Below, one piece after another: positions 1,190-15,011 of a stretch of DNA of 64,000 nucleotides. Below the pieces are notes generated by a model. It was not told the origin of the DNA, searched no databases, and saw only the letters and a program-made list of their open reading frames with translations. Each line of letters opens with the position of its first letter. Position 1 is the first letter of the stretch. The translations under genes were made by a program, and so were the position numbers. The stretch comes from Armatimonadota bacterium (GTDB lineage Bacteria; Armatimonadota; Hebobacteria; GCA-020354555; CP070648), in contig DATLAK010000084.1 in NCBI GenBank assembly GCA_035527535.1, positions 9,413 to 73,412 of the forward strand. Direction: 5' to 3'.

Positions 1190-2044
1190 CACTCGCTCCT
1201 CAGGCATGGGCGCGAGGAGCGGCAGTTCCCCGGGAGGCCCGTTCGTAACGGGCATAGCGCAAGAATCGTGCCACGCCTATCGGGGTGCGATGCGGGGCGA
1301 GGGGACAGTTCCCCGCCGCCCAGCACACCGCCCAGGCCCGGAGCGGGAAGGAACTGTCCCCTCCCGGGTAAGGTGAACAGGGGAGCAGTTGAGCAGGGGA
1401 CTCGGAGACGAAGAGCAATAGAGTGGCACGCCGGCGGATGCTTGGGCGCGCCCCGATTCTTCGGGGCGCGAACCGCGCCCTCGGGCGAAGTCGCGCCCGG
1501 TCCTCACCCGCCAGGTGAAGGCCACACGCTGGCGGCGCATGATCTCGATTAGACCCGGATTATGCGTGAGGCTTCGGGGATGTCGTTCCGAGACGGCGTG
1601 AACGCAATCCGGTACGCGCGGCAGGTCAGTTTCGCGGCCCCGCTCGCCTTGATTTCCCAGCTGGCCACTGTCACCTCAGCCACACCCCAGAGCGACCCCA
1701 GGGCCATCTCCCTCCCATGCGCCCGCGTTACCCGCCCCACCTTTTCCCGACTCCCACCTAGCCACCCTTATCACTTGACGCAATCCTGCCCCCGCCGCCA
1801 GGACCCACCCTTGGCAGGAATCCCCGTCCCCTTGTTGAACATAGTATTGGTCCCAGCCCGCTTCAGATTGAACCAAGGCACGCTCATAGGGCTGACAACC
1901 TGCACATCCTGCGCGAGTACATCGCGCACGAGTGGTTGCCGCAGAAAGAGGTTTCCTGAGCCGATCCGAAAGGCAGCCGCATGAGGAGATTATCCCATCG
2001 CTAAGCAGCCCCTCGCCGAGGTCTTCGGTTTCCCGGTTGACAAC
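1190..2044. other. ~850 bp ORF-free, hairpin-rich region upstream of the R-M module
   Basis: No GC3-consistent ORF. Perfect 14-bp inverted repeat GAGGGGACAGTTCC...GGAACTGTCCCCTC (~1305-1370). Tandem GC hairpins GCGCCCCGATTCTTCGGGGCGC and GGGCGCGAACCGCGCCC (~1440-1500). Confidence 0.5.
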
Positions 2045-2854
2045 ATGAGTCCCGAAGCGATACAGCACCGCCGCGAGCGCGTCTGCCCTTTCAAGGCAGC
2101 GAAATGCACGAAGGACAAGAAAGATGACCCGCTCGGCGTGTGTAGCGTCTTTGCTGACGACAAGGTGGTCATCACCTGCCCTATGCGGTTTCGCCAAGAC
2201 TGGCTTGTTGCCAAAGACGCGGCGTCCTTTTTCTTCCCGGCCAGCGCGCACTTGGCGACGTTAACCGAAGTGCGCGTGAAAGACAAGTACGGCAAACTCG
2301 CGGGCGATATCGACCTCGTCCTCGTGTCTGTTGATGACGCGGGGCGCGTGCTAGATTTCGGCGCGCTGGAGGTGCAGGCGGTGTATATCACCGGCAACGT
2401 GCGTAACCCATTCGCGTACTACATGCAGAACCCGAAGGCGCGCCAAGAAATGAACTGGGCGAGGCAACCGAACTACCCTGGGCCTGATTATCTGTCGTCC
2501 TCTCGAAAGCGCCTAGCGCCACAGTTGCTGTTCAAAGGCGGCATTCTTCATTCTTGGGGAAAGAAGACCGCGGTGGCTCTGAACACGGGCTTCTTTGAGA
2601 CGCTGCCCGCCCTTGACGCCGTGGCATGTGAAAGAGCGGACATCGCGTGGTTTGTCTACGACCTGGAGCACCACGCGGCGCGGAACGTTTACACGCTGAA
2701 GCGTCGCCGAGTCGTGTACACCAAGTTTGAGGAGAGCCTCGCCAAGATTACGCGATCTGCCCCTGGCCCCATGGCCGATTTCGTCCGCGTCCTGCAGAAG
2801 AAGCTGGCCACTCAGTTAGAGGGCAACTCACAATCGGGCGTCAGCGATGACTAG
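2045..2854 (+). CDS. Type II restriction endonuclease, NotI-family-like (N-terminal Cys4 metal site)
   Basis: CPFKAAKC...GVCSV...ITCPMRFRQDWLV resembles the NotI Fe-Cys4 motif (CPF...C...GVCVV...DWLVCPNRA). Overlaps the downstream MTase by 8 nt. Local GC ~57%. Confidence 0.55.
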   Translation: MSPEAIQHRRERVCPFKAAKCTKDKKDDPLGVCSVFADDKVVITCPMRFRQDWLVAKDAASFFFPASAHLATLTEVRVKDKYGKLAGDIDLVLVSVDDAGRVLDFGALEVQAVYITGNVRNPFAYYMQNPKARQEMNWARQPNYPGPDYLSSSRKRLAPQLLFKGGILHSWGKKTAVALNTGFFETLPALDAVACERADIAWFVYDLEHHAARNVYTLKRRRVVYTKFEESLAKITRSAPGPMADFVRVLQKKLATQLEGNSQSGVSDD

Positions 2855-3737
2855 CATAGGATATCAACTGGATCTGGACGGGGCGCCGACGGCCGACCAG
2901 GTGGTAAACGTCGCGTCGGTTCCGCAGCGCAGTCCCTTCCGCTATCCGGGCGGAAAGACCTGGCTGATTCCGCGCGTCCGTCAATGGCTGCGTTCTCTCC
3001 CGAAGCGGCCCTCCGTGTTGGTGGAGCCATTCGCGGGCGGCGCGATTGTTGGCCTTACGGTAGCCTTTGAGCGCTTGGCCGAAAAGGTCGTTCTGGTCGA
3101 GCTTGATGAGCAGGTCGCCGCCGTCTGGAAGACTATCCTCAGCGACGACTGCGAGTGGTTAGTCGGCCGCGTGTTGTCCTTCACCCCGACCTTGGAGAAT
3201 GTGCGCGCGGAGCTTGCGAACACAGACCCGACCACGCCGGCGCTGGCCTTCCGAACCCTAGTCAAGAACCGCACCTATCACGGCGGCATTATCGCGCCCG
3301 GTAGCAGGCCTATGAAGAACGGCGAAAACGGGCGGGGATTGAAGTCCCGATGGTATCCCAGAACGCTAGCTGGACGGATACGGGCGATAGCGAGCATCCG
3401 CGACCGCATCACTTTCACCGAGGGCGATGGCATTGCGGTCATCCGCACCTACGCGCGCCGAAAGACCGCGGTGTTCTTCGTAGACCCCCCGTACACGGCG
3501 GCCGGCAAGAGGGCCGGCATGCGGCTCTACACGCATCACGTCCTCGACCATGAGAGGTTATTTGCGACCACGGCGCGCGTCGCGGGCGACTTCCTGATGA
3601 CCTATGACAACGCGGAAGACGTCGCGGCGCTCGCGGTAGCGCACGGCATGCAGACCCGGACGATTGCGATGAAGAACACCCACCATGCGCAGATGACCGA
3701 ATTGCTTGTCGGGCGCGACTTGAGCTGGTTGCGCTAG
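2847..3737 (+). CDS. DNA N6-adenine methyltransferase (D12/Dam-like, alpha class)
   Basis: Motif I EPFAGGAIVG precedes motif IV FFVDPPY. N-terminal FRYPGGK. Translationally coupled to the upstream REase. Confidence 0.8.
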   Translation: MTSIGYQLDLDGAPTADQVVNVASVPQRSPFRYPGGKTWLIPRVRQWLRSLPKRPSVLVEPFAGGAIVGLTVAFERLAEKVVLVELDEQVAAVWKTILSDDCEWLVGRVLSFTPTLENVRAELANTDPTTPALAFRTLVKNRTYHGGIIAPGSRPMKNGENGRGLKSRWYPRTLAGRIRAIASIRDRITFTEGDGIAVIRTYARRKTAVFFVDPPYTAAGKRAGMRLYTHHVLDHERLFATTARVAGDFLMTYDNAEDVAALAVAHGMQTRTIAMKNTHHAQMTELLVGRDLSWLR

Positions 3738-3833
3738 AACACTCCGCTTGATCGCCGTCCCACCAAGAACACCACCACCCTTCCAGGCTCACTCGTTGGC
3801 TGTGCGCTTCGCGTTGACAATGCATGATCCGGG

Positions 3834-4625
3834 CTAAAGCTTGCGCGGGCGCAGGTCGGCGCGCACGCGAAGGTCTCGCGGCGTGACCAGCAGTTGCCTG
3901 ATCGAGAACGCGAACGGCCCTTGTCGCCCCTCGTTGAGGTCAACGACGGGGTTGATGTCCCTCATCAGGCGGTCAACAATGAACGCGGGCACGGGCACGA
4001 TCGAGACGTGAGCCTTGGGGTCCACCAGGAAGACCTTGCCCCCCGCCGGCTCCAGGCTGCAGGTCAGGCGCACGGGAATCCGCACGCCGCGCCGCACATA
4101 GCCGCTGACCGTGATTTCGCCGTAGCCGAAGGCCAGGCGCAGGTCCTCGACCTGCGTCACCCGCGGCGCCACCATCTTGGTCAGGCCGGCGGCCGTGAGC
4201 CTGGCTTCGGCGGAGCTCTTGCCGACGCGAATGATCTCCAGCTTGCGCCGCCAGATCGCCTTCCATAGGTCGTAGCGAATGTCTTTGATCGTGAGGTCGA
4301 GCCGTTCCACCGGCAGTTCCTTGATGCGGAAGTCGCGCGCATGGATGGCGACGCTGCCGACCCTGCCGACGAGGTCGCCCCCGCCTCCGATGCGCAGGCC
4401 GCCGTCCTCCGGCAGCGAATGGAGGTCGAACCCGACCAGCGTGATCTCGACCTGGTCCACCTGGCGGGAGAACGGCGACCGATGGCCGCGGCGCACCTCA
4501 ACCTTGACTTGCTGGACCGGGCCCAGGGTCTCGCGCATTTGCGCTTCGATCCCCCGCTCGACTTTTCCCGAGACCCCGAGTGTGCCCAGGATGGCGGACA
4601 GCAGCAGCGCAATCAGGGCTTCCAT
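3834..4625 (-). CDS. membrane-anchored hypothetical protein (possibly DUF2993/LmeA-like)
   Basis: N-terminal TM helix MEALIALLLSAILGTLG followed by a beta-rich domain. Start chosen at the internal Met after the Arg-rich junk prefix. Confidence 0.4.
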   Translation of the reverse strand: MEALIALLLSAILGTLGVSGKVERGIEAQMRETLGPVQQVKVEVRRGHRSPFSRQVDQVEITLVGFDLHSLPEDGGLRIGGGGDLVGRVGSVAIHARDFRIKELPVERLDLTIKDIRYDLWKAIWRRKLEIIRVGKSSAEARLTAAGLTKMVAPRVTQVEDLRLAFGYGEITVSGYVRRGVRIPVRLTCSLEPAGGKVFLVDPKAHVSIVPVPAFIVDRLMRDINPVVDLNEGRQGPFAFSIRQLLVTPRDLRVRADLRPRKL

Positions 4626-10868: not shown

Positions 10869-11126
10869 TTGAAAGAGTACGAGGAATGGTACAGGGCGAA
10901 TCCTCTGCGTCAGTGGAGGGAAGGGCAGGAGCCTCGCGTATCGCGACCCGCGCTCGCCCACGAGATGATCGTTCGCGGGTATTCCATCACCCCCGCGACC
11001 ATCCAGCGTTGGGAGTGCGGCGAGTACGCAGTGCCCGATGCGGCGATGAAGTTGCTGGCGGAGATCACGGGCATGCGCGACCTGCGCGCGAGGTGGGAGA
11101 AGTGGCAGGGAGGGCGTGCGAGATGA
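10869..11126 (+). CDS. XRE/Cro-type helix-turn-helix protein (85 aa), TTG start
   Basis: HTH pattern SRPALAHEMIVRGYSITPATIQRWECGEYAVPDAAMKLLA. RBS GGAGGG sits 7 nt upstream of TTG. In-frame stop immediately upstream. Confidence 0.5.
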   Translation: MKEYEEWYRANPLRQWREGQEPRVSRPALAHEMIVRGYSITPATIQRWECGEYAVPDAAMKLLAEITGMRDLRARWEKWQGGRAR

Positions 11127-11245
11127 GAGAACTCCTTGGCCCCGGGGATGGATCGAGCCCGATTCTGGGTGCCAGGTGAATGGCTGGCGGGAGTGGAACT
11201 CTAACGCGTCGGCTTCGAATAGACCACACCGACCGGAGGTGAACC

Positions 11246-11881
11246 ATGCCGCTTACAGGCCCAAGAGCCCTGTTGCTGGCATTGCTATACGCTCCTGGCG
11301 CAAGGCGGATGCCCGGAGAACCCATCGCCGGTATCACGCGCCTGCAGAAACTACTGTTCCTCCTGCAGGAGGAGTACGGATTGCGGAAAGGCGGCCGGGG
11401 GGTTCTGGTCTTCGAGCCGTACCGGTTCGGTCCGTACTCGGCGGCCCTGTATGACGAGATCAGCTTCCTCGAGAACCTGAATCTCATCACGGACAGGAGA
11501 GATACGGGGGCGGCGAGCGCCGAGGAGACTGAGCAGGAGGACAAGCTGGTCGAGGGACTCATGGCGGAGGCAGAAACGGAAGGCAGCATCGGGGCGGAAA
11601 TTAGTGAGGAGGACGTGAAGGGCCTGGAGTACCTTCTAGATGATGTGCCTGGCGAGGACGCCCTCGAGGCGAATCCTGACGAGAGGCAATTCTGCCTCAC
11701 GCCCAGGGGCATGGCCTCTGCGAAGGCCGTCTTTGACTCGCTCAGCTCCGACGAGCGGCATGCCCTTGAGAGCGCCAAATCGAGGTTCGGAGGCATGTCG
11801 TTGAGGAACCTCATCCGGTATGTCTACACGCAGTATCCGGAATCGGCAAGCGAATCGGAGATCAGGGATCGTATACTGTGA
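11246..11881 (+). CDS. Panacea-domain (SocA-like antitoxin) protein with acidic C-terminal extension
   Basis: ITRLQKLLFLLQEEYG...FEPYRFGPYSAALYDEI matches the Panacea/SocA hallmark (hxLQKLLY...GPxxxxLY). RBS GGAGGT upstream. Confidence 0.5.
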   Translation: MPLTGPRALLLALLYAPGARRMPGEPIAGITRLQKLLFLLQEEYGLRKGGRGVLVFEPYRFGPYSAALYDEISFLENLNLITDRRDTGAASAEETEQEDKLVEGLMAEAETEGSIGAEISEEDVKGLEYLLDDVPGEDALEANPDERQFCLTPRGMASAKAVFDSLSSDERHALESAKSRFGGMSLRNLIRYVYTQYPESASESEIRDRIL

Positions 11882-12402
11882 TGGTTCCTACGACCGCGCA
11901 GATGGGGGCGGCAGGTGCGGTTCTGGCATTCGCAGCTGGCGCGCTCGCATTGCTTCACAACTCAAAGCGGATGGAGCGTGCCAGAGATCTTGCCGCCGCC
12001 CAGTCGCGACTTTGGGAGCGAGCAGTACTTGAGTTGCGCGAGCACATCCAGCGTCTCCATGACCTGGCTGATAGATGCATGGCGGAGTCGGGTCCGGAAG
12101 CTGGGACAGCCGGCCAGATGCGGCGTCTCTTGCGTCGGTCCAGGGGGTGTGTTCGCCGCCTGGACGCGCCGATTCGGCTAGGCAAGTGGGTCTCTGGTAC
12201 CGAGAGGAGCATGTTTGCTTCCGCCCTCGGGCTGGTTGCTTCGTGTCTGGCCGTGCTGCTCGGCGGCGCATTTTCGTTCAGCCCGTTCCCGTATGCGACT
12301 TGGATGGGTGTGGGGAGCGGCGCGGCCTTGGTACTCAGCTATGGTGGCAATTATGCCGCTATCTGCTGCTGCGAAAGGCTGATGAGGGCGCAAGGGCTGT
12401 AG
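11878..12402 (+). CDS. membrane protein with central coiled-coil (candidate toxin partner)
   Basis: ATGA start/stop overlap with the upstream gene. One N-terminal TM helix, a coiled-coil in the middle, two C-terminal TM helices. Confidence 0.45.
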   Translation: MMVPTTAQMGAAGAVLAFAAGALALLHNSKRMERARDLAAAQSRLWERAVLELREHIQRLHDLADRCMAESGPEAGTAGQMRRLLRRSRGCVRRLDAPIRLGKWVSGTERSMFASALGLVASCLAVLLGGAFSFSPFPYATWMGVGSGAALVLSYGGNYAAICCCERLMRAQGL

Positions 12403-12414
12403 GGAGTGCCGAGC

Positions 12415-12828
12415 ATGACCGAGATCGAGATCGAGGAAGCGGTGGCCGAGTTCCTCTCCCGACCTGGTTGTCTTGTGGAGCGGCAGGTAGCCTTTCTCCG
12501 AAAGGTCGCGGATGTCTGCTCCTACGATCCTGTCTGCGACACGCTGCTGGCTGTGGAGGCGAAGCGAGAGGACTGGCGCCGCGGGATGCAGCAGGCGCGG
12601 TATTACCAGCTCTTCGCCGACGCCGTCTACATCGCTCTGCCAGAATGCCGGGCGCTGCGTGTCCGAACGCCGCAACTCGAAGAGACAGGCATAGGTCTCC
12701 TTGTGGTGAACAGCACAGTCTCTGTCAGCGTGGAACATGGCCACAACCCTTTCCGCCGAGATCTGTGTCGTGAGATGGTGATTGAGCGTCTTCGCTCTGG
12801 CCCGCGAAGTGGAGGGGGGAACCGCTGA
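12415..12828 (+). CDS. PD-(D/E)xK nuclease, RecB/Cas4-like family
   Basis: CDTLLAVEAK (D...ExK) followed by QQARYYQ (QxxxY). RBS AGGGAG. An alternative GTG start lies at 12406. Confidence 0.5.
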   Translation: MTEIEIEEAVAEFLSRPGCLVERQVAFLRKVADVCSYDPVCDTLLAVEAKREDWRRGMQQARYYQLFADAVYIALPECRALRVRTPQLEETGIGLLVVNSTVSVSVEHGHNPFRRDLCREMVIERLRSGPRSGGGNR

Positions 12829-14150
12829 TGTCATTTGCCGCTGCACAGGCCCCCCAGAATCTGTATCGGCTTGGAACGCACGCCGAAGCGGAGTATTACC
12901 GCCATCTGAAGTCCGCTTACGACGGCATGATCGTCAATGCCAACCTGGTAGAGGCGACCCCGAAGGCCACAGCCTCGTTCCTGGCTACACAAGGCAAGCC
13001 CTTTCTGCTCGACCCGATGACATACGCGTTCGGGCTGAGTCCTGCGGTGCTGCATAGCAACTCCAAGCGCGGGGGGATGAAACGCTCATTTGCCGCTCTA
13101 GCCGAACGATATGGCGGGGTCATACTGAAGCTGGCCGGCAAGGAGGCGATAGGGCCGGATGCCTTCCAGCGAGATTCGGACGTGTCTGACCTTGCCAAGG
13201 CCGTCATCAGTTACCAACTACACCGCTTCGATGATATAGCGAATGAGATGAAAGATGCTGCCCCTGAGGCGTTCGGCGGACTCACCGGACTCTCGCCTGC
13301 TGGGGCGATTGCACCCTACTTCCACATTGATGAGGTCATCGAGCCGGCGCTCTCACTGAACACGCGGCTTCTCCGCGCCGCTGTCTCCCTCCAGCCCGAG
13401 CAGCCAATCTACGCCATGCTGTGCCTTTCCAGCGGGATTCTCTTTGCTGCAAATCTGCTAGACACGATCGCGGGTGCCTACGTGACGGCTGGCGCGACGG
13501 GTTTCATGTTCTGGTTCGATGACGCCACGGAGCGGACCATCGGGACTCTGGGCGTGCAGAATCTCGTCAGATTTGTGAGAGCGTTGAGCCAGAATGGGCA
13601 CTCGGTCTACAACGCTTACGGCGGCTGCCTCTCCGCCCTTCTTTCTCGCTTTGGCCTTTGCGGCTTCTCGCATGGCCTCGGTTACGGAGAGCGCAGGTCG
13701 ATTGTGCCTGTGACGGGCGGAAGTGTTCCGCCACCGAAGTACTATGTTCCGCCGCTCTGCGAGCGGTACAATGTGACGACCGTCTTGCTGATTGCCCCTT
13801 CCGTGCAGTCTGGGATCGACTTTCACGCAGAGATATGCGGCTGCGCAGTCTGTCGCCGGGTGCTGGCAGGTAACCCGGATCGGCTTGTTGAGTTCGGTCG
13901 AACCAGAGATATGTCCGACAAGAATGGGCGGCCTATCAGCGTTCCCACCGCTGAAAGCATCAAGCTTTGCCGGCTTCATTACATGCTCGCGAAAAGGGAC
14001 GAGGTAAACCGGATTCGGGCCAACTGGAGCAGCGCAGTCGAAAGCCTGGCCGTGGCCTACGAGAAGTACGTCGATGTCCTCGGCAAGCCCGAGGTGGCTC
14101 ATCTCGATGTGTGGCACCGCGAACTGACTGCCGCCAACCGAAAACCGTGA
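12828..14150 (+). CDS. hypothetical protein with CxCxxC...H zinc site, possibly tRNA/DNA-guanine transglycosylase (TGT/DpdA)-like
   Basis: TGATG overlap with the nuclease gene. CGCAVC...H motif. DTIAGAYVTAGATGFMFWFDDA resembles the TGT DDIVGAVERGIDMFDCV region. Fold assignment is inference. Confidence 0.55.
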   Translation: MSFAAAQAPQNLYRLGTHAEAEYYRHLKSAYDGMIVNANLVEATPKATASFLATQGKPFLLDPMTYAFGLSPAVLHSNSKRGGMKRSFAALAERYGGVILKLAGKEAIGPDAFQRDSDVSDLAKAVISYQLHRFDDIANEMKDAAPEAFGGLTGLSPAGAIAPYFHIDEVIEPALSLNTRLLRAAVSLQPEQPIYAMLCLSSGILFAANLLDTIAGAYVTAGATGFMFWFDDATERTIGTLGVQNLVRFVRALSQNGHSVYNAYGGCLSALLSRFGLCGFSHGLGYGERRSIVPVTGGSVPPPKYYVPPLCERYNVTTVLLIAPSVQSGIDFHAEICGCAVCRRVLAGNPDRLVEFGRTRDMSDKNGRPISVPTAESIKLCRLHYMLAKRDEVNRIRANWSSAVESLAVAYEKYVDVLGKPEVAHLDVWHRELTAANRKP

Positions 14151-14459
14151 CTGAGCACCTCAACCACGCTGCCGTCGCCCGCAGGGCTGTCGGAAAGACT
14201 GTGCCGCGCGGGGAGAGGCGGCAAACCGCTGACGTGCGCGGGATGAGTGATTGTGGTGGGGTGACCCTGGCGAGCGCCCTCGCTGTGACTGTGGCGCTCC
14301 TTGCAGCAGTACAGGGCGCCGTGGAACGCTCAAGCGCCGCCGCGGACATGGTAGTGCGGGAGGCGGCACAGCTGTGAACGACGTACTGATCGGTGTGGCA
14401 ATGGGCTAGTTACCGGGACGGTCACCTGCTTTCTTGCCTGGTGGGTCCTGTTCCACGTT

Positions 14460-15011
14460 GTGGTTCCCAACGTGCGCTTCTCTCAATCAATAAGCAGGCT
14501 TCCCGCAGAGGACAGGAAACCGCCCTGGGAGTACCGCGTCAAGTTTGAGAACGCTGGCAGGAGAGCCATCATGGATGTCGAGGTGACAGCCAGACTTCGA
14601 GTGAAGCGCTTGGTCGCGACCCGTCCTGGCAATTGGTGGGTGTCCAGCATTCCTGTCGAGTACGGTGACCCCATATGCAGGGTCCCTAAGATGGGACCCG
14701 TGCGCACAGGGGCACGTCGCCAAATTGTGCCGCTTCTGGTGAACGACGCGGAGCAGTTCAGACAGGCTCCCTATCCGGCAGAGGTCAGGGAGAAGGCACA
14801 GAACCGATCTCTGCTGCCGGAGGATCTACTGCGGTTGGGCGATAGGACGGAACTGCGGCTCATCGTCTCCGGATATGATGCCTTCAGCGGCGCCCGACGG
14901 CTCTTCGTATCAAAGGAATACACCGTGGGCGACATCATCGACGGACGGTTCAACAAGGATGGACTAGAAGTAATACCGCAGGCTAGTGAGCCGTCTGAGC
15001 CTTCCGCGTGA
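14460..15011 (+). CDS. hypothetical protein
   Basis: GC3-consistent ORF. No recognised motif. Start uncertain (GTG 14460 or ATG 14569). Confidence 0.35.
   Translation: MVPNVRFSQSISRLPAEDRKPPWEYRVKFENAGRRAIMDVEVTARLRVKRLVATRPGNWWVSSIPVEYGDPICRVPKMGPVRTGARRQIVPLLVNDAEQFRQAPYPAEVREKAQNRSLLPEDLLRLGDRTELRLIVSGYDAFSGARRLFVSKEYTVGDIIDGRFNKDGLEVIPQASEPSEPSA

Follow-up and report, generated by a model that had tools for sequence, protein, structure and literature searches.

The solved restriction endonuclease (REase) closest to the one studied here is NotI (PDB 3BVQ/3C25). On the methyltransferase (MTase) side, alpha-class enzymes are defined by the order AdoMet region (FxGxG), TRD and catalytic DPPY (PMC2890505). 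M.NruI and M.Sbo13I are 49% identical, yet they modify different bases (N6mA versus N4mC) (PMC2890505). Likewise, M.CbeI and DmtB produce m4C in GGCC, as determined experimentally, despite their annotation as D12 enzymes. PD-lambda-5, a defence system of an E. coli prophage described as a compact RM+Abi system, required a cloning host that lacked the region containing mrr. In this study, we analysed a restriction-modification (R-M) locus in a 64-kb stretch of Armatimonadota DNA, which is referred to as the window throughout.

Both ORFs that had been reported for the locus, including their overlap, are present (Table 1). The homology anchors in lspA and lmeA (1232-3910) are 2679 bp apart in the window versus 328 bp in L085/L086. 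As lspA and lmeA are adjacent in host relatives, about 2.3 kb (roughly 1561-3833) represent an insertion. Thus, the horizontal acquisition of the R-M pair that was proposed in the initial annotation is supported, and it is reinforced by the empty site in the relatives. The left end of the insertion is approximate and not base-exact, since it was set at the step from 69.2% GC (1188-1560) to 62.2% GC (1561-1996). The insertion has a GC content of 61% versus 68% for the window. For the gene pair, 61.1% was measured (REase 59.1%, MTase 62.9%), while the window averages 67.9% (sd 3.1), so that the reported dip is real but its figures (57% against about 70%) were off. The GC content of the pair falls within the lowest 3.9% of segments of the same size, yet above the minimum, and GC3 is 74-79% in the pair versus 84-92% in the adjoining genes. 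In a blastn alignment, positions 1997-3757 matched the homologous locus L082 with 92%. A protein identical to the window REase is already deposited at NCBI under the name "NotI family restriction endonuclease".

Table 1. Positions of the features of the R-M locus in the window.
Feature	Position	Strand	Remarks
Imported non-coding leader	1561..1996	+	Left edge approximate, at GC step
Relic of a further DNA methyltransferase gene (5' end)	1891..1959	+	Reads …ADNLHILREYIAHEWLPQKEVS*
In-frame TGA	1982..1984	+	Four codons 5' of family start; GGA GAT TAT CCC in between
Shine-Dalgarno-like GAGGAG	1983..1988	+	8 nt 5' of ATC
ATC at family start-codon position	1997..1999	+	L082: ATG GCT AAG CAG; window: ATC GCT AAG CAG
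NotI-family (PF12183) REase frame	1997..2854	+	285 codons, homologous to family
REase ORF as annotated	2045..2854	+	269 aa
MTase ORF	2847..3737	+	296 aa
Alpha-class amino-methyltransferase (PF02086)	2847..3737	+	Intact
8-nt overlap, REase stop/MTase start	2847..2854	+	Derived in this lineage
Right end of insertion	3738..3833		GC 59%; L082 homology to 3757
Host lmeA	from 3834	-	Right flank of insertion

The REase matched the Pfam family PF12183 (NotI) with 187.9 bits (cut-off 22, E=2.5e-55), with the same score with or without the N-terminal extension discussed below, and it is 60-65% identical to homologs of about 291 aa. This confirms a NotI-family endonuclease with the Cys4 motif CPF…C…GVCSV…CPMRF that was recognised earlier. 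The four cysteines (Cys30, Cys37, Cys49 and Cys61 counted from codon 1997; codons 2084, 2105, 2141 and 2177) occupy columns that are invariant over five divergent branches and NotI, and the sub-lineage of the window carries a 2-residue deletion between the first two of them. The N-terminal motif E8-x-F10-G11 is invariant in all family branches and in NotI, and the predicted catalytic residues D104/D106 and E125-x-Q127 (2369-2377) are invariant in the family. With hhalign, the LEVQ of the REase was placed on L181-E182-I183-Q184 of NotI in a weak alignment (E=0.012). In a fold search (Foldseek against PDB), NotI (3C25_A) was the top match and the sole significant one, with E=2.7e-5 and probability 1.00, and the next match had E=0.07. 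The underlying AlphaFold model has a pLDDT of 64 and a TM of 0.38, with the N-terminus and residues 135-175 below 50; at this low confidence, a role of the N-terminal motif can be deduced from its conservation only. NotI was not found among PDB sequences by phmmer or by a profile of 17 subfamily sequences, and its own sequence did not match PF12183 at E<=0.01. The link to NotI is therefore that of the fold search, together with the PDB-verified NotI sequence.

The sub-lineage of the window REase is off-consensus at 11-12 of 99 conserved columns, compared with 1 for the median member, and the window protein carries the substitution W86L at a Trp that is conserved to >=95%. Between the window and L082, dN/dS was 0.33 for the REase and 0.32 for the MTase. 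These equal values suggest that most of the divergence arose under purifying selection. A long-standing pseudogenisation of the REase was considered but found no support, as neither dN/dS nor the counts of lineage-specific substitutions differ from those of the MTase. Of the sister copy, L081, only a truncated remnant of the REase is left, with no MTase.

The frame homologous to the family opens 48 nt upstream of the annotated REase start (Table 1). At the family start-codon position, L082 and also L081 have ATG where the window has ATC. Because of the in-frame TGA four codons upstream, a canonical start codon of this frame is impossible any further 5'. Among 82 sequences, the window is the only one without a canonical in-frame start 5' of the conserved motif; two further loci have ATC at the start position, and each of them has in-frame ATGs farther upstream. 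The identical ATC sequence was found in two more, independent assemblies (L083 and L084). E-x-F-G is encoded at 2018-2029, downstream of the TGA but still ahead of the first canonical start. The annotated ATG thus leaves out a motif that is invariant across the family and NotI, and only the non-canonical ATC with its Shine-Dalgarno-like sequence could bring it into the REase product. In addition, the Met at 2045 (Met17) is at a variable position among homologs, and it is not preceded by a purine run comparable to GAGGAG. By comparison with the homologs, automatic annotation apparently took an internal Met as the first residue of the REase and masked the loss of the start codon. Inactivating mutations relative to homologs, which the initial annotation had named as one of the findings that would refute it, were partly encountered: the start changed from ATG to ATC, whereas the frame is otherwise open and the key residues are kept. 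An attenuation or inactivation of the REase is probable, while the MTase is intact.

The region upstream of the annotated REase had been described as about 850 bp of structured non-coding DNA. It is indeed non-coding (857 bp), but it folds like shuffled sequence, with z-scores of -1.7 and +0.8, the latter for the leader within the insertion. An Rfam search of the region at E<=1 gave no match, and a promoter and terminator scan of the + strand 5' of the REase yielded nothing useful. The stretch 1894-1996 shares 90% identity with the DNA 5' of the REase in L081. Largely within this part, a short frame resembles the beginning of a further DNA methyltransferase gene. Its counterpart in L081 reads MPDSLLYYGDNLDILREHIAHE…, by comparison with which the window copy shows a 21-nt deletion. 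Against plasmids, tblastn returned only two matches of the relic with weak E-values (4-5); both lie at codons ~10-32 of genes annotated as "DNA methyltransferase", and their positions are concordant. Judged from these alignments, the upstream region holds the relic of a methylase gene. As stated previously, a C-protein gene is absent. No small helix-turn-helix ORF of the controller type was found in 1188-2044, and none is conserved beside any of the 80 homologous loci.

The assignment of the second ORF to the alpha-class DPPY MTases holds, with motif I (EPFAGGA, residues 60-66, 3024-3044) ahead of motif IV (DPPY, residues 213-216, 3483-3494), FRYPGGK at the N-terminus, and a score of 46.5 bits against PF02086 (D12 class, cut-off 22). 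The protein is off-consensus at 1 of 79 family-conserved columns (0-1 in its sub-lineage). By the NCBIfam cut-offs, it is outside the Dam subfamily (GATC N6-adenine), with 42 bits against TIGR00571 (cut-off 114.85) and 15.5 bits against PRK10904 (cut-off 441). When solved structures were searched with the family profile, M.CbeI was nearest (E=1.2e-9), while E. coli Dam reached only E=1.6. The best PADLOC model was PD-Lambda-5_B, with 139.5 bits over almost the full length. The overlap of both genes is a derived feature, since the TCA of the window corresponds to a TGA in L082, whose REase ends 16 nt before the MTase ATG. Among family members, the junction varies between -134 and +51 nt, with -14, -4 and +1 to +5 as the commonest values.

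The REase family was detected in at least 593 species-level genomes of many phyla, including one archaeon. An MTase homolog directly follows the REase on the same strand in 79 of 80 loci, the exception being at a contig edge. Adjacent REase and MTase genes with a pairing conserved across genomes characterise Type II R-M systems, and by this measure the window pair is predicted to be one. Any given flanking ORF is shared by two of the 80 loci at most, which points to a mobile two-gene module without C protein. Similar pairs are located on plasmids of Thermus brockianus, Aeromonas, Variovorax, Achromobacter and Burkholderia, and these copies in cultured bacteria are labelled "NotI family restriction endonuclease" and "DNA adenine methylase". 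Hence, the pairing of a NotI-family REase with a D12 MTase, which the initial annotation regarded as unusual, is the norm and has long been public, and gives in itself no sign of novelty. The locus is an ordinary two-gene R-M cassette of a very widespread family that is already annotated publicly.

It was also argued initially that a D12 family MTase implies an adenine in the recognition site and that the specificity could be new. This argument is not safe, because M.CbeI makes m4C in GGCC as a D12/N6A-annotated enzyme, and PF02086 membership together with DPPY therefore does not fix the target base. Nor does NotI help: with 12-14% identity in the structural alignment its specificity is not transferable, and as it is only a remote relative, the MTase that accompanies it is a poor guide to the present clade. 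The window contains 16 copies of the NotI site GCGGCCGC. In a literature search on NotI-family, NotI-like and PF12183 REases, Thermus brockianus SNM4-1 and pEST4011, no paper was found in which a specificity is assigned. This would leave room for a fully active system in which a NotI-like REase and an N6-adenine MTase share a novel adenine-containing site, and it would agree with the PF02086 score above threshold, the DPPY motif and a REase whose catalytic and Cys4 residues are retained. The same reading draws on the similarity to the PD-lambda-5 MTase, as a cloning host deleted for the mrr region fits m6A without proving it; we did not accept this cloning as evidence for m6A, since the deleted region may include mcrBC too. 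However, the pairing is normal for the clade, the solved structure nearest to the MTase is that of an m4C enzyme, the score against the Dam model is far below its cut-off, and the canonical start of the REase is gone, so that we consider such a system improbable. A better, though still tentative, possibility is that the MTase is of the alpha-class N4-cytosine type like M.CbeI and DmtB, and that the site consists of G and C only, possibly containing GGCC as that of NotI does. Among the solved relatives, M.CbeI is closest by a wide margin and has RYPGGK and DPPY in common with the window MTase, and both characterised enzymes are m4C-forming. In line with this, no palindromic 4-mer is more depleted than GGCC, with a ratio of 0.78 in the window (z=-5.9) and 0.76 in 80 pooled host loci (583 kb, z=-14.8). 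Moreover, a homologous pair is present on a Thermus plasmid, and m4C was reported to be the commoner cytosine methylation in thermophiles growing above 60 °C. On the other hand, the similarity to M.CbeI is distant (41 bits with the family profile), and the Mrr-region deletion used for PD-lambda-5 fits m6A at least equally well. GATC, CTAG, GTAC and many 6-mers are likewise depleted in the window and the pooled loci, for which there was no control set, so the avoidance of GGCC is not specific. For this reason, palindrome avoidance was dismissed as a decisive pointer to the site.

With regard to the state of the system, we think it quite likely that the locus is an acquired Type II R-M cassette in which a start-lost REase is attenuated or dead beside an intact MTase. 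A self-contained two-gene cassette of ~2.3 kb would have been inserted horizontally into the lspA-lmeA interval of an Armatimonadota genome, in the order REase-MTase on one strand and with no controller gene. The REase is predicted to combine an N-terminal Cys4 metal site with a PD-(D/E)XK-type core (D…E-x-Q) that is remote from NotI. It would cut, when unmethylated, the same short site in which the MTase would methylate adenine at N6 or cytosine at N4, both of them exocyclic amino groups. In this copy, ATC has replaced the ancestral start codon ATG of the REase. Given this ATC and the stop four codons upstream, REase could be made only (a) by low-level initiation at the ATC or (b) from Met17. 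By the former route, output from a non-canonical codon behind a good Shine-Dalgarno sequence would be low; by the latter, the protein would lack the invariant E-x-F-G. AUC initiates translation in E. coli at about 0.1-1% of the level of AUG in reporter measurements, and loss of the REase beside an intact MTase is a common path by which R-M systems decay to solitary methylases. An attenuated or dead REase with a fully intact MTase would thus be the most likely present state. Against attenuation, it has to be considered that the frame is open over all 285 codons with every catalytic and metal-binding residue kept, that the REase appears as constrained as the MTase in dN/dS, and that GAGGAG 8 nt ahead of the ATC fits continued, if weak, translation.

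These very features are tempting to read as a selected weak start, where a low level of REase replaces control by a C protein and the system is fully functional. The strong GAGGAG is at ideal spacing, the ATG-bearing L081 has no such sequence, the frame is intact with a dN/dS that indicates constraint, and the REase is the first gene of an operon that lacks a controller gene. Nevertheless, we regard a selected weak start as rather unlikely: the ATC is unique to the window copy among 82 sequences and the nearest relatives have ATG, the REase carries W86L in addition, and, owing to the 8-nt overlap, weak translation of the REase might also reduce the coupled translation of the MTase. That the 269-aa protein starting at 2045 is a real, active enzyme with 16 dispensable N-terminal residues is very unlikely. 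Its ATG is the sole canonical start in the frame and is used by NCBI and other sources, and the Pfam score does not depend on the extension. Yet E8, F10 and G11 are invariant in all branches and in NotI, and the ATG has neither a Shine-Dalgarno sequence nor conservation of its Met in its favour.

As found, the locus is of low importance in itself, since it only adds a further acquired Type II R-M cassette to a family with many members. However, the label "DNA adenine methylase" of a large MTase clade derives from Pfam membership alone, and with an m4C enzyme as the closest characterised relative, base predictions for thousands of genomes could be wrong. The loss of a start codon under an intact-looking ORF also illustrates that R-M activity is not readable from the ORF alone. 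We see a modest chance, which we would not put high, that the clade (thousands of proteins, at least 593 species) has an experimentally never-determined site and forms a second mis-annotated alpha N4-cytosine lineage, and separately, that AUC with a strong Shine-Dalgarno sequence throttles a toxic REase in the absence of a C protein. A motif determined in a single cultured strain, e.g., Thermus brockianus SNM4-1 or a carrier of the small Aeromonas plasmids, would probably give the specificity of the whole clade.

Compared with known systems, the window REase has the N-terminal E-x-F-G and the overall fold in common with NotI. Its Cys4 site (C30/37/49/61) corresponds to C42/55/65/81 of NotI and its catalytic residues D104/D106, E125 and Q127 to D160, E182 and Q184, whereas it is about 100 residues shorter. 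The MTase resembles M.CbeI (PDB 7M6B) and DmtB in the alpha-class order of motifs, RYPGGK, DPPY and the PF02086 annotation. However, the partner REase of M.CbeI is HaeIII-like and that of the window MTase belongs to the NotI family; R.CbeI was considered as a NotI-family member and discarded, since the M.CbeI paper names it HaeIII-like. While the B component of PD-lambda-5 is the best PADLOC model of the MTase, the REase did not match PD-Lambda-5_A, just a generic Type II REase model, and the pair therefore falls outside the PD-lambda-5 definition, which needs both A and B components. In Cronobacter pESA2 and a Sedimenticola plasmid, PF12183 REases that are 28-31% identical to the window REase adjoin a C5-cytosine MTase ("DNA cytosine methyltransferase"), and the order is MTase-REase instead of REase-MTase. 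The window architecture is found in the pairs of the Thermus brockianus SNM4-1 plasmid pTbrSNM4-1c (WP_244363995.1/WP_234508656.1) and of the Aeromonas, Variovorax, pEST4011 and pIJB1 plasmids. Their MTases are about 52% identical to the window MTase, and their REases are 54% (Thermus) or about 30% (others) identical to the window REase. In Aeromonas veronii, the homologs are WP_110198772.1 and WP_110198773.1. Unlike the window copy, these plasmid copies have canonical start codons and reside in cultured hosts.

The REase and MTase genes constitute a Type II R-M cassette that was acquired horizontally and is of a known, very common kind. Public databases already annotate it, and the exact REase protein appears there as a "NotI family restriction endonuclease". 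Their anatomy is as the initial annotation described it: two ORFs that overlap by 8 nt, the first matching Pfam PF12183 "NotI" (187.9 bits, cut-off 22). The overlap is derived, as a TGA in L082, the nearest relative, reads TCA in the window. Horizontal acquisition is supported by an empty site and a dip in GC content. With the neighbouring LmeA-like protein as query, two metagenomic relatives were retrieved (L085 and L086; LmeA 68%, LspA 61% identical to the window) in which lmeA adjoins lspA. Homology of the window DNA to both ends at 1231 on the left and restarts at 3911 on the right, enclosing 2679 bp in the window vs 328 bp in the relatives. The REase-MTase block is inserted in the host genome. 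GC drops from 69% (1188-1560) to 62% (1561-1996), and therefore the inserted block spans roughly 1561-3833, about 2.3 kb; homology with L082, the closest R-M relative, stops at 3757. The GC dip of the pair is real but smaller than claimed: the pair has 61.1% (REase 59.1%, MTase 62.9%), where the window averages 67.9% (sd 3.1). This places it in the bottom 3.9% of stretches of equal size, but some are lower still. Its GC3 is 74-79% vs 84-92% in the neighbours.

Positions of the two genes and of features upstream of them
Feature	Position	Strand	Remark
REase ORF	2045..2854	+	269 aa; as annotated
MTase ORF	2847..3737	+	296 aa
In-frame TGA	1982-1984	+	four codons upstream of ATC
Methyltransferase relic	1891-1959	+	5' end (~22 codons) of a different DNA methyltransferase gene; in imported part

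The pairing had been put forward as unusual, an argument for novelty that is not supported. Scanned with the REase alignment, at least 593 species-level genomes gave a match. The best 80 of these loci came from Planctomycetota, Chloroflexota, Acidobacteriota, Verrucomicrobiota, Pseudomonadota, one cyanobacterium and one Methanothrix, and in 79 an MTase homolog (52-69% identical to that of the window) follows the REase immediately, in the same orientation; the sole exception stops at a contig edge. Protein searches returned 5456 relatives of the REase and at least 8000 of the MTase, with matching contig sizes between the lists. Plasmids of cultured bacteria also carry the annotated pair: Thermus brockianus pTbrSNM4-1c (REase 54%, MTase 52% identical to the window's) and, with about 30% and 52% identity, Aeromonas, Variovorax, Achromobacter pEST4011 and Burkholderia pIJB1. 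In other PF12183 branches the partners are C5-cytosine MTases and the gene order is reversed, so both kinds of partner occur across the family. Within 900 bp, no flanking ORF is common to more than two of the 80 loci, and thus the mobile unit is the two genes alone; a conserved controller (C) gene is likewise absent next to these loci. The MTase clade is far more conserved than its REase partners. On a 4-kb Aeromonas veronii plasmid (NZ_CP121823.1), the MTase is about 52% identical, including the presumed target-recognition region, and the REase only about 30%. This conservation despite diverged REases hints that one specificity may be common to the clade.

The start of the REase gene shows a potentially inactivating change; inactivating mutations in the REase, which the initial annotation had named as a possible refutation, are in part borne out. 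REase homologs are about 291 aa long and begin with M-x-K-Q-P-L-A-E-V-F-G. At this position the window reads ATC-GCT-AAG-CAG (from 1997, the codon from which REase residues are numbered here), where L082 (92% nucleotide identity over 1761 bp) has ATG-GCT-AAG-CAG and L081, a further relative, ATG-CCT-AAG-CAG. In all 80 other loci the frame has a canonical start here or further upstream, uninterrupted by a stop codon. The annotated ATG (2045) is codon 17, a variable position among homologs. Two further assemblies (ENA ERZ27256834 and Logan SRR8554643) contain an identical 2.8-kb sequence with the ATC, which is therefore no one-off assembly error. GAGGAG lies 8 nt upstream of the ATC; the ATG at 2045 has no comparable sequence ahead of it. 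Given the ATC, the TGA upstream and a Shine-Dalgarno-like sequence only before the ATC, the product would thus either arise from a very weak non-canonical start or lack E8, F10 and G11, residues invariant even in NotI. Two of the 80 loci, L011 and L053, also have ATC at the family start, with in-frame ATGs 11-21 codons upstream; L011 has GGAGG 7 nt upstream of its ATC, and the real start in both is ambiguous.

Judged by sequence, further signs point to a REase that may be drifting. Among columns at least 95% conserved in the family (99 in the REase, 79 in the MTase), the sub-lineage of the window and L082 deviates at 11-12 in the REase (median of a typical member, 1) and at 0-1 in the MTase. 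The REase changes comprise, among others, the loss of 2 residues between Cys1 and Cys2 and a shorter C-terminus; W86L occurs in the window only. L081 (187-831; ENA ERZ27248180 contig k141_1588941) carries an 88% identical REase truncated after about residue 205, followed not by an MTase but by a PLD-like gene on the opposite strand, and is what remains, after decay, of the same cassette in a different genome. Near-equal dN/dS between the window and L082 (REase 0.33, MTase 0.32) and an otherwise intact REase frame are evidence against long-term decay.

Between lspA and the annotated start of the REase lie 857 bp that are non-coding, as proposed, but the proposed structure was not recovered: folding is no better than in shuffles (z=-1.7 for 1188-1560, +0.8 for 1561-2050), and Rfam gave no match at E<=1. 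Local hairpins are present. The host-like part holds an inverted repeat whose 21-nt arms are 86% complementary and 23 nt apart (1299-1319 / 1343-1363), and a hairpin of 10 perfectly paired bp closed by a 4-nt loop (1447-1456 / 1461-1470). In the window, the methyltransferase relic has a deletion of 21 nt; it is better kept in L081 (about 57-150): MPDSLLYYGDNLDILREHIAHE. Its only two plasmid matches, both weak, are to the N-terminal coding part of genes labelled "DNA methyltransferase". As the relic lies upstream of the REase, the cassette once stood behind, or displaced, another methylase gene.

Elsewhere in the 64-kb window, GTCGAC (the SalI site) is absent vs 18.7 occurrences expected under a maximum-order Markov model, and CTCGAG (27 vs 61.6 expected) and CAGCTG (7 vs 26.9) are also strongly depleted, which suggests that a further R-M system exerts pressure in this host. 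A second low-GC island (about 11000-15000; 58-63% GC, with the lowest 1.7-kb stretch of the whole window at about 12300), whose ORFs of 183-440 aa have no Pfam match, may be another acquired segment.

Adenine in the recognition site had been deduced from the MTase family but is not implied by it. Despite its DPPY motif and its annotation as an N6-adenine MTase of the D12 class, M.CbeI makes m4C in GGCC according to its primary paper. The MTase has the alpha-class order, with motif I EPFAGGA (residues 60-66) preceding DPPY (213-216; class as defined in PMC2890505), and scores 42 against the Dam subfamily model TIGR00571 (cut-off 114.85). Its closest solved relative is 7M6B, at E=4e-5 when the MTase alone is the query and at 1.2e-9 for a profile built from 20 family sequences; with the profile, E. 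coli Dam structures reach only E=1.6. 7M6B is M.CbeI, called an alpha-class N4-cytosine methyltransferase by its depositors; its relative DmtB likewise makes m4C in GGCC. M.NruI and M.Sbo13I are 49% identical and their reported bases differ (N6mA vs N4mC). Among PADLOC models, that for the MTase of PD-lambda-5 scores best (139.5 bits). PD-lambda-5 is described as compact RM+Abi and was cloned in a host without the region containing mrr; this likeness and the deletion do not discriminate between m6A and m4C. Among palindromes, GGCC is the most depleted 4-mer (0.78 in the window, 0.76 in pooled host loci); GATC (0.79), CTAG, GTAC and many 6-mers are depleted too, so the avoidance is not specific to one site. 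We lean slightly towards m6A as the product, with m4C a less probable but serious candidate.

With respect to NotI, the name of PF12183 overstates the closeness. Within the PDB sequence set, neither phmmer nor a subfamily profile found NotI with the REase, and the NotI sequence (3BVQ_A residues 14-366, an exact match in PDB) has no PF12183 match at E<=0.01; distant plasmid homologs score 38-270 bits, unlike NotI itself. With a modest AlphaFold model (pLDDT 64), the only significant Foldseek match was NotI-DNA (3C25; E=2.7e-5, probability 1.00, 12-14% identity). Aligned locally, the N-termini match significantly (z=8.0 vs shuffles), pairing LAEVFG with IAEFFG and CPF, GVC and DWLV with their NotI counterparts, and hhalign places LEVQ on NotI L181-E182-I183-Q184. 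E8, F10, G11, the four Cys, K39, G47, P62 and R64 are invariant in a seven-sequence alignment of all branches and NotI. The REase is a genuine though remote NotI relative, and the specificity of NotI is therefore not transferable to it.
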